IMG/VR virus record: IMGVR_UViG_2923318301_000003 | From: a virus | Lineage: Duplodnaviria; Heunggongvirae; Uroviricota; Caudoviricetes | DNA: 53,582 nucleotides | Reading direction: 5' to 3' (one strand) | Shown here: positions 4,068 through 46,739 of the stretch, one piece after another | How positions within the stretch are numbered: position 1 is the first letter of the stretch | Layout: each line of letters opens with the position of its first letter | Notes under the pieces: model-generated | Told to the model about the DNA's origin: nothing | Seen by the model: only the letters and a program-made list of their open reading frames with translations | Database searches by the model: none | Translations under genes and position numbers: made by a program

Positions 4068-4862
4068 TTCTCTCATATTCATTGCGTAGAGCATAAATAT
4101 CTATCTAACCACCTAAAATGCCAGAAAATCTAGTTGTATACCGGTGCGAAAATATCTCGCGTTTCATCTGCCACTGCTGCTGAATGCCCTGCCCAGCGAA
4201 ACAGAGTGTTTCCTTCCCGTCTTTTGCATTGAGGTGCTCCAGCACGCTCATTAACTTTTCGCTCCCAGGACCCAGCGCGTTATCGTCGAATAGGTTAGGG
4301 CATGCTCTGACTGAAGAAGTCCCCCAGCATTACCCCGGCTTTCTGATATCGGTGTCCGTCTTTCCATATTGCATCCAGACTCCCCGTTGCTACTGCAATG
4401 ATATCCCGACTGTCCTGTGTCGGGATGAGCAGCTTCACCGACGCGCTGTTACAGTAGTACGACTCGTTCAACGCAAAGGGTATCGTGTAAAACCGATGAT
4501 GACACTGCCGGCAATCAGCACTGACGTCAGCAAACGTGAGAAAGAACAGATAAGCCGAACGATTTAGGAAATGTTTGAAGAGACTGATATGTGGATGGTT
4601 TCAGTTTAAACGCCTTGAACCGTCATATTACCTAAGTACAATCCGCTGTGACTGGCAATCATTCAATACTTGCACTATCAAAAGTGCATCAGCCAACCGC
4701 AGCACGTCTTGCATACGACCTGTCTGCGGTTTCAATCACCTCTCACCACCAGTCCCATCAATAATAATTAAACAGCGCCTAAACAAAATAAATAACAACA
4801 AGTCAACAACCTCGACAGGATGCCGATGGGATGTAAGCGACTCATCAGAACCGTATTGATAT

Positions 4863-36925: not shown

Positions 36926-37357
36926 TTACTCCTTCGAGCTACCAAACTTGTTACCGATTACTCTCATTGCAGCCCCACGAATAGCATCGACACCGATCAG
37001 CCCCACCCCACCACCAATGGCAACAGAAAGCGATTTAGGCCATCCGACATACTCAAGCGCGGATGCAAAGGTCAACGTCAGAGCGCCACATAGCAAAATC
37101 TCGAGCGTTTTTCGCTTCCAGCCACCACCACCGCCAAAATAGGCGATGCGCAAACCAGCCATAACAATCGACATAATCACTGCGCCCAGCGGCGTATCTC
37201 CACGCCACCAGCTCTGAAACAACTCCAGCCAGTCCGGCCAGGTATTTGGGTTATGAGGCATTTCGTCATCTCTCACCTCGCGATATTTGCGGGTGCTGTG
37301 TTGGAAATAAAAAGGCCACGCAACGTGGCCACCAGAATTATTTCCCCACCAGTTCAC
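36926..37357 (-). CDS. Putative holin (not lambda S type)
   Basis: Immediately upstream of the endolysin gene; three hydrophobic helices. Start is probably internal (MPHNPNTW), because the full ORF overlaps the methyltransferase 3' end. Confidence 0.6.
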   Translation of the reverse strand: MNWWGNNSGGHVAWPFYFQHSTRKYREVRDDEMPHNPNTWPDWLELFQSWWRGDTPLGAVIMSIVMAGLRIAYFGGGGGWKRKTLEILLCGALTLTFASALEYVGWPKSLSVAIGGGVGLIGVDAIRGAAMRVIGNKFGSSKE

Positions 37358-38390
37358 TTACCTCTTTCACCGTCTGATTAAACCGCTCTGACTCAAGTTC
37401 AACACCTAACGCCCGACGCCCCAGCGCCATTGCCGCTTTTATTGTGGAACCGGATCCCATAAAGAAATCAGCAACCAGATCGCCTTGTCGACTACTGGCA
37501 CTGATTATTTGCCGGAGCATATCCGCAGGCTTCTCACACGGATGTTTACCCGGGTAGAACTGAACGGGTTTATGCGTCCAGACGTCGGTATAAGGCACGG
37601 AAACTGATACGGAGAAATAGCGCCGGAGAGTTTTAAACTCATCCAGCAATTCAGAATATTTGCGATTCAGTGAATCATAAGATGCCACCAGCTGGTGGTG
37701 TGGTTGTTCCAGTTGTTGTTCCTGAAATTTCTCTGCCGCTATACGGGAAAACAGTGCCTGCAACTTCCGGTAGTCAGCCTCATTCGGCAACTGCCACTGA
37801 CTGGCACCAAACCAGTGGGAAACCATATTTTTCTTACCTGTGGCTTCAGCAATTTGTTTTGCCGTTATACCCAGTTCGGCACGAGCATCCCTGAAATACG
37901 ATATCAGCGGTGCCATTATGTGCTGTTTGAGTTCCCTTTCTTTTGCCGCATAGCCGTCACTTTTGCCGCGATATGGCCCCTGGTAATGTTCAGCAAACAG
38001 AACGCGCTCTGTGGCAGGAAAATATGCGCGCAGACTTTCTTTATTACACCCATTCCAACGTCCGGACGGCTTCGCCCAGATGATATGGTTAAGCACGTTG
38101 AAACGTTCACGCATCATGATCTCAATATCAGATGCCAGGCGATGCCCACAGAACAGGTAAAGGCTTCCGGCTGGTTTCAGTACCCGCCAGAACTGGGCCA
38201 GACAGTGGTCCAGCCACTTCAGGTAATCTTCGTCCCCTTTCCACTGATTGTCCCAGCCGTTGGGCTTCACTTTGAAGTACGGCGGATCGGTAACAATCAG
38301 ATCAATGGAGTTATCAGGCAGGGACTGAATAAAATGCAGGCAATCAGCGTTGATTAAATCAACACTGTTTATTTTTACAGTATTTTTCAT
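37338..38390 (-). CDS. DNA methyltransferase (DPPY-motif N6-adenine/N4-cytosine class), orphan
   Basis: VTDPPYF near the N-terminus and the AdoMet motif DFFMGSGST near the C-terminus; no adjacent restriction gene. Confidence 0.85.
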   Translation of the reverse strand: MKNTVKINSVDLINADCLHFIQSLPDNSIDLIVTDPPYFKVKPNGWDNQWKGDEDYLKWLDHCLAQFWRVLKPAGSLYLFCGHRLASDIEIMMRERFNVLNHIIWAKPSGRWNGCNKESLRAYFPATERVLFAEHYQGPYRGKSDGYAAKERELKQHIMAPLISYFRDARAELGITAKQIAEATGKKNMVSHWFGASQWQLPNEADYRKLQALFSRIAAEKFQEQQLEQPHHQLVASYDSLNRKYSELLDEFKTLRRYFSVSVSVPYTDVWTHKPVQFYPGKHPCEKPADMLRQIISASSRQGDLVADFFMGSGSTIKAAMALGRRALGVELESERFNQTVKEVSELVGK

Positions 38391-39008: not shown

Positions 39009-39935
39009 ATGAAAGTTAGAAGCATAGGATTTACAATAAATAACAATAACAAAAATATTAATACCGTTGACGTAATGAATGCTTTTATCAACGCATCAAA
39101 CAGAGAACACAGTCGCACAGACTATACTCGTAAAATTCTCATTTCGGATGTGAATGATTTCTATTATGGATTAGTTGTCACATTCAGAAACCAAAAAAAG
39201 AACTGTAAGTCGCAATTTGTTGATGGTAAATTCCAGCTTAAAATTGAAGATCTTCAAGGAAGTGACAAACTTGCTAATTTCAACTTTTTCTTAATTAAAA
39301 AATCTAATCTTTCTGGTCTCTATATGTATCACCACGGGTCATGCAGTCTGAACACTCTCTTTTCTCATTTAGAAACAATAAGTAATGAATTTATCAGAAA
39401 TCAAAATAAAGAAGAAATAAAAAAACTTGGTGATAAACCAAAACAAAAAGAAGTAACTGCAATAAATAAAAAATACAAAGAAAGACTGACTTTCAGCCTT
39501 ATGACAAATAAAAACAACATTCAGAGTGTTTTATGTCAATTCAAAGAGATTAAAAGCACAAGCTTTAAATTTAATTATATAGATTTTAAAGGTGGACCAA
39601 TGACTGCGCTTGAACAATTTGTTAACACTACCACAATAGATATGAATTTTAATTCTAGCGACAGAACAAAAGTGCAACAACTATCTCAGAATCTTTCAAA
39701 TATTTATAATTCTATGAGTGGAGTTGCTAAAGCACAGGTTATTGCAGTAAACCATGCAGGAATAGAAAAAACCATTGATTTTATGAACTGCCCTGTTTTT
39801 TTTGAAACATACGATTTCGATATAATTGCCGATAAAGTCAATGGATTGACAAACGATAATTATACAACAAACCCTGTTTTTGATATGATAAAAGAAGAAA
39901 TGCTGAACGGGACGAATAAAAATGCCTTTATATGA
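39009..39935 (+). CDS. Hypothetical soluble protein, first gene of the AT-rich two-gene moron operon
   Basis: 308-aa ORF, strongly AT-rich, opposite strand to the flanking phage genes; 14-nt overlap with the next gene; no recognisable catalytic motif. Confidence 0.75.
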   Translation: MKVRSIGFTINNNNKNINTVDVMNAFINASNREHSRTDYTRKILISDVNDFYYGLVVTFRNQKKNCKSQFVDGKFQLKIEDLQGSDKLANFNFFLIKKSNLSGLYMYHHGSCSLNTLFSHLETISNEFIRNQNKEEIKKLGDKPKQKEVTAINKKYKERLTFSLMTNKNNIQSVLCQFKEIKSTSFKFNYIDFKGGPMTALEQFVNTTTIDMNFNSSDRTKVQQLSQNLSNIYNSMSGVAKAQVIAVNHAGIEKTIDFMNCPVFFETYDFDIIADKVNGLTNDNYTTNPVFDMIKEEMLNGTNKNAFI

Positions 39936-40470
39936 ATGGCTAATAAATAAAAGATTGAGGTATCAGTACCTTACACTGCTTGCATCCTCGATCCTGGCAT
40001 TGCTTGCACTTTACCTATTGTACAGAAACACACCTAAAGTAAGTGTTAACTTTTTTGATTTTTATCATAAAAACTTACGAGGCTATCTCTTCTCCGGTTT
40101 TATTTCCGTGGGCTCATTTTTATTGAGCCTGCATACCTTTGTCATAATAAATTTACGCGATAAGGTTTTTGCAACTCAGGAATATAAGGAAATTTATAGC
40201 ATTGCCACTGGTATACCTATTGACAAAATCAATGATAGTGTACTTTATAAACCTTTAGACAATTTATCCTCATTTATTAATACATCAATATTATGTTCTA
40301 TCACAACAGCAATTGCACAATTCACTATTGGACTTTCAACTAATTTATATGCATGCTTATTTTGCGTATGGCTTGCAATACTAACGGTATTTCTTTTATT
40401 ACATTGCCTCATCATAATCAGACAAAATATTAAAATTTTATTAAAGCAACAGAGAAAAAAAGGGGGGTAA
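39922..40470 (+). CDS. Small integral membrane protein (four predicted TM helices), second gene of the moron operon
   Basis: 182-aa ORF with four hydrophobic stretches of ~19-25 aa (LTLLASSILALLALYLLY; LFSGFISVGSFLLSLHTFVIINL; SILCSITTAIAQFTIGL; LYACLFCVWLAILTVFLLLHCLIII) and a basic C-terminus. Confidence 0.75.
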   Translation: MPLYEWLINKRLRYQYLTLLASSILALLALYLLYRNTPKVSVNFFDFYHKNLRGYLFSGFISVGSFLLSLHTFVIINLRDKVFATQEYKEIYSIATGIPIDKINDSVLYKPLDNLSSFINTSILCSITTAIAQFTIGLSTNLYACLFCVWLAILTVFLLLHCLIIIRQNIKILLKQQRKKGG

Positions 40471-42655: not shown

Positions 42656-43045
42656 TCAGGCGGCTGCACCCGCCGTTTTCTCGTACTTACTGATAGTGAT
42701 CTCGACCTTCCCTTCCGGGATAACCGGTCCCCACTCCACCAGCATTCTTTTCACCTGACTGTCGTCTTCCCACACACCCGCGTGGGTCAGGGCGTCAAAC
42801 AGTGCCTTGTTATAGTTGTCCAGATCGCGGATCCGGTTATCCGGAGGAAACAACACGATCTCCACTGAAGCAGGTGCCGACGTTGGTTTCGGCAGACGAC
42901 GTAACTGCTCAACTATTGCTGCGCACGCCGCGCTCTGGAATTTTCGCCCCGCCTCGCTTATCAGGCTTTTACCTGCAAACGCCCCTTTGTTGGGGTGTCG
43001 CCAGTACGTGTTCACGCTGGGCGGGAAAGGCAAGATCAGCTTCAT
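42656..43045 (-). CDS. rusA: Holliday junction resolvase RusA
   Basis: 129-aa ORF with RusA-like PPSVNTYWRH and RDLDNYNKALFDAL acidic motif. Confidence 0.8.
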   Translation of the reverse strand: MKLILPFPPSVNTYWRHPNKGAFAGKSLISEAGRKFQSAACAAIVEQLRRLPKPTSAPASVEIVLFPPDNRIRDLDNYNKALFDALTHAGVWEDDSQVKRMLVEWGPVIPEGKVEITISKYEKTAGAAA

Positions 43046-43401
43046 ACTTTCAGGCCCCTCTCATGTAACCAGTGGGCTGCACGCAGCCTGGCGTTTTCCT
43101 CACCGGCAAGCAGTGCGCGGATAATCCCGACCGCCTCGCTGTCGTCGTCCTTCACCGCGGTATGAAGCGTTATCCCCCGGGCCACGCCACGCTTTATCGT
43201 GATGACGCCTTTTTTCTCCAGTGCACGAAGATGCTCTACCGCTGCATTCACTGAACGGTATCCCAGCATGGTTGCCACCTCCTGATTGGTTGGCGGAAAG
43301 CCACGCTCTTTCTGGTAAGAAATCAGCATATCCAGCACCTGCTGCTGGCATTGAGTTAACGTCGTCATTACGCCCCCACGTAATTCCCTGATAGATACCA
43401 C
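43042..43401 (-). CDS. LexA N-terminal DNA-binding-domain-like protein lacking the S24 peptidase domain
   Basis: LTQCQQQVLDMLISYQKERGFPPTNQEVATMLGYRSVNAAVEHLRALEKKGVI closely parallels the LexA DNA-binding domain; protein is only ~110 aa. Start probably at 43368 (MTTLTQ). Confidence 0.65.
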   Translation of the reverse strand: MVSIRELRGGVMTTLTQCQQQVLDMLISYQKERGFPPTNQEVATMLGYRSVNAAVEHLRALEKKGVITIKRGVARGITLHTAVKDDDSEAVGIIRALLAGEENARLRAAHWLHERGLKV

Positions 43402-43862
43402 TCATCACTCGATACAGCGCGCTTGCTGCTTTTCCGTAAACACTGCTCACGACGCGCCAGAAAATTGTTTCGTTCTGGCTGGGAGTGGCTTTCACGGAAT
43501 GCCGCCATCCACACCGTTGCAGCACGACGGTATAAGCCCCTTGACTCCAGTTCTTCCGCCTGGCGGGTCAGGCACAAAATCACCCGGGGATCGTTAGTGC
43601 CGACATAGAAATTGCGCGCAGGTCTGGTTTCACGAACTGGTTGTGGTTCCGGGTCCTGCGCTCTCTCAGTCAGGCGCGGGAAATGTCTGCGTGTATCCCC
43701 TTCACAACGGTGAGCCACACGCCCACTCTGACGTAACTTGCTTGCTGACTGCAGAACGCGCTGCCGTGAGTAACCAGCAAAAGCATCCGCAATGTCTCCG
43801 GAAGTACACCCCGGATGGGCTTCAATGAATTTCTGAACGTCATTTAACAGACTCATGATCAC
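43368..43862 (-). CDS. Hypothetical regulator (PerC-like C-terminal region, tentative)
   Basis: 164-aa ORF; the segment AEELESRGLYRRAATVWMAAF resembles the PerC family from memory. Confidence 0.5.
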   Translation of the reverse strand: MIMSLLNDVQKFIEAHPGCTSGDIADAFAGYSRQRVLQSASKLRQSGRVAHRCEGDTRRHFPRLTERAQDPEPQPVRETRPARNFYVGTNDPRVILCLTRQAEELESRGLYRRAATVWMAAFRESHSQPERNNFLARREQCLRKSSKRAVSSDEWYLSGNYVGA

Positions 43863-44800
43863 CCCCTGAATCCTGCCGGGATCTGGCTGTAGTCCACGTT
43901 GTCGTAACTGGATTTGAAGTACGGGTCTTCGCGTTTTTCGGTGTACGTGCTTACGGACGGCGATAAGCGCAGGGAAAGCTCATCCCATTTTTCCCGCAGC
44001 TTCGACGGACTGAGCACGTTACGGCACCAGAACGGATCGCGGCTGACGCGGCTGTACATCTCGCAGATTTGTTTGTGAGTACGACCATCCTGCACACACA
44101 TCAGGCGAATTTCGTTTGCCCAGGCTGTCCAGTTCGGTTCTTTGGGACGAACCACCTCGCCGTCACATTCGGCGGCCTGCTCGTACAGGGCGATGATTTT
44201 TTTCCAGAGCCACTGTGCGCAGGTCAAATCATCCTGCGTCCCCCACTGGCGCTTTTTAGGGCTGAATACAACCGCATCAGGATGGCGAGTTAAAAAATCC
44301 TGTTCAGCCGTCTGCGTGTCCGGTTGCGAAGCGTCCGGACGAGAAGGTTTTTTATCTGACGGATCATGTTTTGATTTTACTGACGGATCCCCGCCAGATT
44401 CTGACGGGTGAAAACCCGCTTTTTTGCCAGATTTCGACGCATCAAATTTTGACGGGTCAGATTTTGATGCGTCAGATTTTGACGGGTCAGAATCTGACAG
44501 TTGAGAAAATGCCGCTGCCTGAAGCTTCGCAACGTTAAGCTGATAAACATTCGACGCATTGCGGTTACCCTGGCGACGCGCCTTACGCGTTAACCAGCCT
44601 TCTGCTTCCAGCCGTGCGATAGCCGTTCTGACGGTACTCATCCCCGCGCCAATCTGACGGGCAATGGTTTCAATTGATGGCCAGCACACACCTTCGTCAT
44701 TACTGAAATCAGCCAGGCGGGCCATAATTGCCACGCTGGATAATTTCATGCCTGACGCAGCGCAACCATCCCATACATAGCCGGTTAATTTAGTGCTCAT
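43859..44800 (-). CDS. Replication initiator (lambda O-like role) with N-terminal HTH and internal iteron-encoded repeats
   Basis: 313-aa ORF with N-terminal winged-HTH-like region; the central repetitive peptide (DPSKSDASKSDPSKFDASKSG) coincides with DNA iterons. Confidence 0.7.
   Translation of the reverse strand: MSTKLTGYVWDGCAASGMKLSSVAIMARLADFSNDEGVCWPSIETIARQIGAGMSTVRTAIARLEAEGWLTRKARRQGNRNASNVYQLNVAKLQAAAFSQLSDSDPSKSDASKSDPSKFDASKSGKKAGFHPSESGGDPSVKSKHDPSDKKPSRPDASQPDTQTAEQDFLTRHPDAVVFSPKKRQWGTQDDLTCAQWLWKKIIALYEQAAECDGEVVRPKEPNWTAWANEIRLMCVQDGRTHKQICEMYSRVSRDPFWCRNVLSPSKLREKWDELSLRLSPSVSTYTEKREDPYFKSSYDNVDYSQIPAGFRG
44350..44505. repeat. Array of ~8 direct ~15-bp iterons (consensus about ATTTTGACGGGTCAG) inside the initiator gene: candidate replication origin
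   Basis: Tandem repeats visible at 44351, 44373, 44395, 44430, 44445, 44461, 44476 and 44491; analogous to ori-lambda inside O. Confidence 0.7.
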
Positions 44801-46046: not shown

Positions 46047-46739
46047 ATGAACATAGGAAACCGAGTCAGACAACTTCGCCAAGCGAAGAACATGAAAATC
46101 GCCGATCTCGCTGAAGCAATAGGAGTAGATGCGGCGAACATCTCGCGCTTAGAAACGGGTAAGCAAAAACAATTTACCGAACAAACACTGAGTAATATTG
46201 CCAAGAGCTTAGGTGTTGATATTGCTGATCTCTTTACCTCTGCCCACAAAAGTAATACTGTATATAAAAACAGTAATAATGAGGATGTTGCGCAGGTGAA
46301 GGATGTGTTCCGTATTGAAATGCTGGATATCAGTGCCAGTGCGGGAAATGGCCTTATCCAGGGCGGTGATGTCATTGATGTGATTCATGCCATCGAATAC
46401 AGAACTGATAATGCTGTATCAATGTTCGGCGGACGACCAGCCAATCACATCAAAGTTATCAACGTTCGTGGGGACAGTATGTGTCCAACCATTGAGCCAG
46501 GAGATCTCATCTTCGTTGATGTCAGCATCAATCAGTTTGATGGTGATGGTATATATGTCTTTGGTTTTGATGACAAAATATACGTTAAAAGACTTCAAAT
46601 GATTCCTGACAAACTGCTGGTGATTTCTGATAACCAGATTTACCGTGAATGGGGAATTACTAGCGAAAACGAACACCGATTCATGGTCTTTGGAAAGGTC
46701 TTAATCAGTCAGTCGCAAACCCTTAAGAGACATAATTAA
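46047..46739 (+). CDS. CI-like repressor (HTH-XRE plus S24 LexA-like autopeptidase)
   Basis: N-terminal HTH; C-terminal GDSM...KR Ser-Lys dyad and an Ala-Gly site (SAGNG); 230 aa. Confidence 0.9.
   Translation: MNIGNRVRQLRQAKNMKIADLAEAIGVDAANISRLETGKQKQFTEQTLSNIAKSLGVDIADLFTSAHKSNTVYKNSNNEDVAQVKDVFRIEMLDISASAGNGLIQGGDVIDVIHAIEYRTDNAVSMFGGRPANHIKVINVRGDSMCPTIEPGDLIFVDVSINQFDGDGIYVFGFDDKIYVKRLQMIPDKLLVISDNQIYREWGITSENEHRFMVFGKVLISQSQTLKRHN

Follow-up and report, generated by a model that had tools for sequence, protein, structure and literature searches.

A LexA-type DNA-binding head with its own helical tail in the early-right operon of an Escherichia coli lambdoid prophage: a candidate RecA-insensitive SOS-box binder

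The subject of this work is a small gene in the nin-like region of an E. coli lambdoid prophage that is integrated at tRNA-Thr, adjoining proA (IMG/VR record IMGVR_UViG_2923318301_000003; the whole stretch of 53,582 nucleotides that was analysed is called the window below). Its product, here termed the LexA-like protein, has the DNA-binding head of LexA, lacks the peptidase half and is not a mere stump, because it has a conserved two-helix C-terminal tail of its own. The best explanation is that the gene descends from the N-terminal domain of a proteobacterial LexA, and that a phage-specific two-helix tail replaced the self-cleaving and dimerising S24 domain. With a confidence that falls a little short of even, we propose from sequence comparison that the phage protein may bind and repress SOS boxes (CTGT-N8-ACAG), would be insensitive to RecA, and would be made in lytic growth.

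A LexA DNA-binding head in a prophage gene

The initial annotation had described a LexA DNA-binding domain without the peptidase domain, encoded by an open reading frame at 43042..43401. A minus-strand frame is indeed present at these positions and gives 119 aa from GTG 43401, but this is the longest open reading frame and not the gene. The true coding sequence is located at 43042..43368 on the minus strand and encodes 108 aa (MTTLTQCQQQ...HERGLKV): ATG 43368 is the start in homologues, in the family alignment and in RefSeq WP_000210154.1 (327 nt), while a start at the GTG would lengthen the coding sequence by 11 codons, which run into the upstream gene and which homologues lack. The domain assignment itself was confirmed. 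The Pfam profile PF01726 (LexA_DNA_bind) matched with E 2.9e-19 and 69 bits against a cut-off of 23.7, and residues 1–65 of the protein covered profile positions 1–65 of 65. BLASTP against E. coli LexA gave 43% identity (E 1e-21), and PDB chains of E. coli LexA matched the LexA-like protein at E 6.5e-16 to 1.5e-15. Moreover, the AlphaFold model of the LexA-like protein, with a mean predicted local distance difference test score (pLDDT) of 75, was aligned by Foldseek to the LexA–DNA complex 3jso with a root-mean-square deviation of 1.3 Å over 68 residues at 50% identity. The resemblance of the phage protein to LexA is thus far beyond chance.

The AlphaFold model and its Foldseek alignment to 3jso place the winged helix-turn-helix in residues 1–68 (43165..43368, minus strand), with helices at residues 6–22, 28–35 and 40–52 and wing strands at 56–58 and 66–68. 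The recognition-helix residues 39–47 are encoded at 43228..43254 (minus strand) and read SVNAAVEHL, compared with SPNAAEEHL in E. coli LexA. A review of the LexA–DNA structure assigns the reading of CTGT by E. coli LexA to S39, N41, A42 and E45 (PMC11442139). At each of these four positions the phage protein has the identical residue (RSVNAAVEHL versus RSPNAAEEHL of LexA), and the wing residues R64-G65-I66 are also identical in the alignments. Hence the alignment with LexA that had been proposed as a check found the base-reading residues of the recognition helix and the RGI of the wing conserved.

The peptidase half is missing and a two-helix tail is present

Pfam returned no Peptidase_S24 match in the LexA-like protein, and the NCBIfam lexA equivalog TIGR00498 scored 70.5 bits against a cut-off of 110.95, covering model positions 1–91 only. 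A tblastn search for the LexA C-terminal domain found nothing adjoining the gene, and its sole match was a weak one inside cI. Because the S24 domain is absent, RecA-stimulated self-cleavage is impossible, as the initial annotation had held. A88-G89 of the phage protein aligns with the A84-G85 scissile bond of LexA (LLAGE versus VAAGE), but the pair lies inside a predicted helix and is replaced in relatives (LLANEE, LLVGEE, MIDDQPG and others), so it is not a cleavage site. The possibility that A88-G89 is a substrate for cleavage in trans by host LexA/RecA* was ruled out on the same two grounds.

The head is followed by an acidic linker at residues 69–77 (HTAVKDDDS; 43138..43164, minus strand), which is comparable to the LexA hinge and modelled with low confidence, and then by a family-specific C-terminal tail (43060..43149, minus strand) that is modelled as two amphipathic helices, 74–87 and 91–103. 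Its hydrophobic positions I82, I83, L86, L87, A93, A97, W100 and L101 are kept, and the tail is retained in relatives down to ∼40% identity in prophages of Citrobacter, Cronobacter, Enterobacter, Klebsiella, Cedecea, Salmonella and Hafnia. Foldseek gave no specific structural match for the tail; judging from the model, it may be a dimerisation module. The earlier statement that the protein stops after ∼110 aa was therefore accurate as to length (108 aa), but the protein is not merely a truncated LexA.

Selection and distribution

Over 53 distinct alleles of the E. coli clade, the ratio of non-synonymous to synonymous polymorphism (pN/pS) of the LexA-like gene was 0.05, so the gene is under strong purifying selection and is functional. 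The protein matched PHROG family phrog_362 with E 1.6e-59 over positions 1–106 of 106, and length, tail and synteny are kept from 100% to 40% identity across nine genera. Of the 5426 complete E. coli genomes, 2698 contained the segment that comprises the PerC-like, LexA-like and rusA genes, 2164 of them at a coverage of 80% or more, and the LexA-like gene itself is carried by about 40% of complete E. coli genomes. The segment is also present in ∼50 sequenced phages, including SfV (orf42), SfII, SfIV, cdtI, mEp460 and Stx2c, Stx2a and Stx2k phages. The gene is thus very common, and it is already annotated and catalogued by homology: the phrog_362 and WP_000210154.1 entries, ‘LexA family transcriptional regulator’ (SfV orf42, SfII_44, mEp460_046 and cdtI orf48), are the same family and often 96–100% identical, and their labels (‘transcriptional repressor’) are homology-based. 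A functional study of the gene was not found in the searched literature.

In a few database proteins (P0001, P0023, P0092, P0098 and P0120) the LexA-like sequence is fused to Dam methylase (PF05869) or to the helix-turn-helix of an O protein; these fusions are probably frameshifts or gene-calling artefacts at overlapping gene junctions. The ST64B gene sb44 (894 nt, ‘methyltransferase’) had no LexA-like match in tblastn.

SOS boxes in the window

The window contains two strong SOS boxes, whereas none occurred in 300 dinucleotide-preserving shuffles, and CTGT-Nx-ACAG was enriched at N8 only, with no enrichment at the other spacings. Both boxes are credible LexA sites by sequence and hence candidate targets of the LexA-like protein.

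The first candidate operator, TACTGTATATAAAAACAGTA (46256..46275), is identical to the K-12 umuDC operator and sits in the codons of the linker between the helix-turn-helix and S24 domains of cI. This cI gene (46047..46739, plus strand) encodes an ordinary cleavable repressor with a helix-turn-helix, an S24 domain and SASAG, GDSM and VKRL motifs. At the same position, CTGT-N8-(A/C)CAG is present in six cI genes that are 67–93% identical (mEp460, ST64B, Klebsiella phage 1 LV-2017, Flotzy, phiNP). ACTGTA...CAGT of the box is invariant, in contrast to its spacer and to the amino acids encoded there, in the least conserved part of the protein; this indicates selection on the DNA. A promoter-like arrangement, TTTACC/TTTACA-17-TACTGT, overlaps the box, and the sequence suggests that the box might act as a LexA-gated internal promoter (sense or antisense) or as a roadblock; a paper on a cI-internal SOS box was not found in the searched literature. 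We also considered the cI box as a dedicated target of the LexA-like protein. This was rejected because the same box is present in four phages without the gene: in the flanks fetched for ST64B and Klebsiella phage 1 LV-2017 tblastn detected no LexA-like gene, and in Flotzy and phiNP none is annotated.

The second candidate operator, CACTGTTTATTTTTACAGTA (38363..38382), covers codons 3–9 of a late-region N6/N4 DNA methyltransferase gene (37338..38390, minus strand) and is conserved in diverged phages. It is kept in SfV, cdtI, Stx2c phages and Ayreon, and in the diverged gene copies of phiNP, Kp4866-6 and a Morganella phage. The methylase box co-occurs with the LexA-like gene among phages at ≥95% identity, but linkage can explain this. 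As a dedicated target it was rejected as well, because phiNP retains the box although no LexA-like gene is annotated in the O-to-Q region fetched from it. The diverged methylase genes that carry the box belong to Citrobacter, Klebsiella and Morganella phages, and immediately upstream there is a conserved hairpin, CTGCTTTAGCGCAAAAGCAG.

Two architectures of the family

The wider family was sampled from IMG/VR only, as 80 diverse loci which are 44–65% identical to a Cedecea/Enterobacter member, with the proteins clustered at 80% identity. Two architectures were found. Type A comprises 8 clusters with 49 loci and Enterobacter prophage L014, and type B comprises 5 clusters with 31 loci, mEp390 and the whole E. 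coli clade including the window. In type A the order is one or more strong SOS boxes, then dinI or recA or neither, phrog_1813, the LexA-like gene, phrog_1212, rusA (in some loci) and DUF968; the phage dinI and recA were confirmed by Pfam (8e-22 and 1.4e-130, respectively). The upstream SOS box was found in every type A locus with enough flank, at 0–4 mismatches to the 20-bp consensus and as a CCAG variant in two loci (L115 and L116), and type A downstream flanks of equal length (3 kb) contained no perfect-core SOS box. In L014, a terminator is followed by a TTGCAA-17-AATAAT promoter, and the box comes directly after the latter. Edwardsiella phage EPP-1 carries a tail-less LexA-head gene of 71 aa in an operon with an SOS box upstream. 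In type B, rusA directly follows the LexA-like gene, and the window has no homologues of dinI, phrog_1813 or phrog_1212. The family is thus tied to SOS circuitry, but in cis only in type A and not in the branch of the window.

Several further observations were made in these loci. In Klebsiella/Enterobacter-type lambdoid phages the nin region (IMG/VR loci L099–L146 and L151, and L014) forms an ‘SOS island’ in which one or more boxes head an operon with dinI or full-length recA, and a UmuD'/HumD-like gene that has a box of its own sometimes comes first. The constant partners of the LexA-like gene in this island are phrog_1813 (77–116 aa) and phrog_1212 (66 aa). Some E. coli-clade relatives (L056 and L091) have an SOS box, TACTGTATTTATGAACAGTG, at positions 4765–4784, in a 150-bp region downstream of rusA and upstream of a variant KilA-N gene, which suggests that this antirepressor-like gene is LexA-gated.

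The gene in the early-right operon

On the minus strand of the window, the early-right genes are ordered cro, ymfL/cII-like, DUF4222, O-like, PerC-like, LexA-like, RusA, KilA-N, DUF968/HNH and Q. The LexA-like gene therefore follows the replication gene and precedes Q, all on the same strand, which is the nin-region position of lambdoid phages and agrees with the placement given in the initial annotation. The PerC-family (YfdN-like) gene upstream (43368..43862, minus strand; reading frame and profile match) ends in a TAA that overlaps the LexA-like ATG by 1 base (TAATG), and the ATG of the downstream gene for Holliday-junction resolvase RusA (42656..43045, minus strand; reading frame and profile match) overlaps the LexA-like TGA (ATGA). 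From the O-like gene to the end of rusA, a consensus scan found no promoter-like site and no well-formed minus-strand terminator; its only entries further downstream were weak minus-strand hairpins within the DUF968 gene and a strong terminator past Q. Because it has neither a promoter-like site nor a well-formed terminator of its own and lies in the pR operon, the LexA-like gene is taken as part of the delayed-early lytic transcript. For the same reason it is unlikely to act from a quiescent lysogen. The suggestion in the initial annotation that the protein could tune prophage induction is thus probably wrong, since the protein would act after induction or infection.

The PerC-family gene, which is translationally coupled to the LexA-like gene, encodes a putative transcriptional activator; several phages, SfII, SfV and mEp460 among them, have a dam methylase gene inserted at the junction of these two genes. 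Within the O-like gene (43859..44800, minus strand) a 15-bp unit, CAGATTTTGACGGGT, is repeated four and one-third times at 44428–44491 and specifies the DPSKSDASKS repeats of the gene product; these copies are most likely origin iterons, as in lambda. Two overlapping genes without Pfam match (39009–39935 and 39922–40470, plus strand) are carried on the strand opposite to Q, in the interval from Q to the lysis genes, which is a typical moron position, and an analogous opposite-strand pair in Klebsiella phage ST846-OXA48phi9.1 has an SOS box ahead of it.

A proposed RecA-insensitive SOS-box binder and the alternatives to it

If the LexA-like protein is a binder and repressor of SOS boxes, the pR transcript would yield it only after induction or infection. 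The protein would read CTGT half-sites as LexA does, would pair via its helical tail or on DNA in the manner of free LexA N-terminal domains, and would bind operators of the CTGT-N8-ACAG type. Because it is uncleavable and lacks the C-terminal VAA signal for ClpX, it would keep or restore the occupancy of SOS boxes after host LexA is destroyed, and SOS-type operators would be occupied independently of RecA*. Candidate targets are the two boxes of the phage itself (the one in cI and the one at the start of the late methylase gene), the host SOS regulon, and genes under LexA control in prophages that share the cell; overall, a repression that would not respond to RecA is to be expected. A more far-reaching form of this proposal, which we regard as doubtful, is that the lambdoid prophages concerned, which occur in about 40% of complete E. 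coli genomes and among which are Stx2c-, CDT- and serotype-converting phages, would on entering lytic growth make a LexA surrogate that is proof against RecA. Once host LexA is cleaved, this surrogate would re-occupy SOS boxes, shut the host SOS regulon and the LexA-gated genes of rival prophages and plasmids (antirepressors, dinI, colicins) and act on the cI and methylase boxes of its own phage, and Klebsiella/Enterobacter-type phages would carry a portable mini SOS circuit with a phage recA or dinI.

Several points weigh against SOS-box binding and repression. E44 and R28 of LexA are not kept, being V44 and N28 in the phage protein. Positions 42 and 45 vary in the family (E45 is replaced by L, T, S, I, G or D) though the hosts share one SOS motif, and judged from these sequences the variation fits co-evolving private operators better than mimicry. 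Strict LexA mimicry is therefore not what the family as a whole does. In type B, to which the window belongs, there is no SOS box within 3 kb upstream and the gene is not linked to dinI or recA. The SOS boxes of the window are also found in phages without the gene, and host LexA alone therefore suffices to explain them. Dimerisation through the tail rests on a monomer model with a predicted template modelling score (pTM) of 0.50. Finally, the only characterised analogue, gp6 of Bacillus phage GIL01, has a site unlike that of LexA and activates transcription (PMC6182141), and the SOS-operon context of type A would fit a gp6-like activator or timer equally as well as an autoregulated repressor.

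These points bear on the alternative that survives best, in which the LexA-like protein is a phage-private transcription factor like gp6: it would bind an operator of its own, possibly CTGT-like, near a phage promoter, for example that of Q or the late genes, and would activate or time transcription without a meaningful effect on host SOS. We consider this possible but on the unlikely side. It has a precedent, since gp6, itself a LexA homologue in truncated form, activates the late promoter P3 (PMC6182141). Moreover, the LexA-like gene is always just upstream of the DUF968–Q segment, positions 42 and 45 drift among hosts with one SOS box, and the operon that holds the gene in type A relatives is SOS-derepressed, just like that of gp6. 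However, all four base-reading residues of the window protein are those of LexA while the gp6 helix has diverged, no conserved non-SOS palindrome is found near promoters, CTGT-Nx-ACAG is enriched at the LexA spacing alone, and no sequence relationship to gp6 is detectable. For a site of the gp6 type (about −43.5 of the late promoter), no candidate was identified in the window.

The overlap of the LexA-like stop codon with the rusA start, and an adjacency of the two genes that is kept in all type B clusters and in mEp390 (47% identity), would also suit a DNA-binding accessory of recombination or replication, working with the translationally coupled RusA to target it, to restrain it or to mark DNA. 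This is improbable: in type A the two genes are separated by phrog_1212 or rusA is absent, in Edwardsiella phage EPP-1 rusA lies upstream and is not adjacent, and the conserved base-specific recognition residues point to operator binding. To our knowledge there is no precedent for a LexA-like accessory of RusA. A decaying, functionless fragment of a captured lexA is very improbable, and a split or decayed lexA was effectively ruled out: although the protein looks like a truncated LexA and its ‘AG’ at 88–89 aligns with the LexA cleavage site, the low pN/pS over the 53 alleles, the conservation of length, tail and synteny down to 40% identity in nine genera, the lack of any C-terminal-domain remnant and the lack of conservation of AG in the family all speak against it.

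Should the LexA-like protein bind SOS boxes, induced or infecting phages would gain, through a very common prophage gene, direct control over the SOS regulon irrespective of DNA damage. This would bear on the competition between co-resident prophages, on the course of induction of Stx and CDT phages, and on SOS-driven mutagenesis and antibiotic tolerance in cells with active phages, as well as on the evolution of LexA-type specificity after viral capture. An uncleavable surrogate made in lytic growth would amount to operator-level anti-SOS warfare by a phage, and the protein would offer a natural ‘LexA head plus minimal dimeriser’ that is useful for dissecting LexA–operator recognition. If the operators are private instead, the family would be a second, independent case after gp6 in which a phage repurposed the LexA DNA-binding domain as a regulator of its own.

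Comparison with known systems

The N-terminal domain of E. coli LexA (PDB 1lea and 3jso) shares with the phage protein the same winged helix-turn-helix at 43–50% identity, the same base contacts, the RGI wing and an acidic hinge after the domain. Unlike the phage protein, LexA has an S24 peptidase and dimerisation domain with a Ser/Lys dyad and an Ala-Gly cleavage site, in place of which the phage protein has its two-helix tail; the phage protein also differs in being encoded in a pR operon, in scoring below the NCBIfam lexA cut-off and in having V44 and N28 for E44 and R28. The free N-terminal domain of LexA still binds SOS boxes and represses, and cells must remove it by ClpXP (PMC10584840). 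The LexA 1–84 fragment and LexA(Ind−) mutants resemble the phage protein in that the LexA DNA-binding domain does not respond to RecA. The natural fragment is reportedly cleared by ClpXP via its new C-terminal VAA, a finding attributed to Neher et al. in 2003. The phage protein ends in GLKV and not in the VAA of the 1–84 fragment, and its extra helical tail may supply the missing dimerisation.

DinI, of phage or host, and plasmid-encoded PsiB dampen SOS for a mobile element, and phage dinI is the immediate operon partner of the family in Klebsiella-type phages. Both DinI and PsiB act on the RecA filament. Unlike them, the LexA-like protein would act at operators.

The closest characterised parallel is GIL01 gp6, likewise a phage-encoded LexA-type DNA-binding domain without a cleavage domain, which binds GaCACAn nTGTGaC (PMC6182141). 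The early operon is LexA-repressed in GIL01, and likewise in type A relatives. However, gp6 is 66 aa long, has no tail and has a diverged recognition helix (SHKTAHRYL), whereas the helix of the window protein is much closer to that of host LexA. BLASTP gave no alignment between gp6 and the window protein at E ≤ 100, so that homology beyond the shared LexA fold was rejected, and this indicates independent captures of host LexA heads, that of gp6 from a Gram-positive LexA. What distinguishes the window protein from gp6 is thus its independent origin, its conserved helical tail, its host-like recognition helix and its very wide distribution in enterobacterial prophages.

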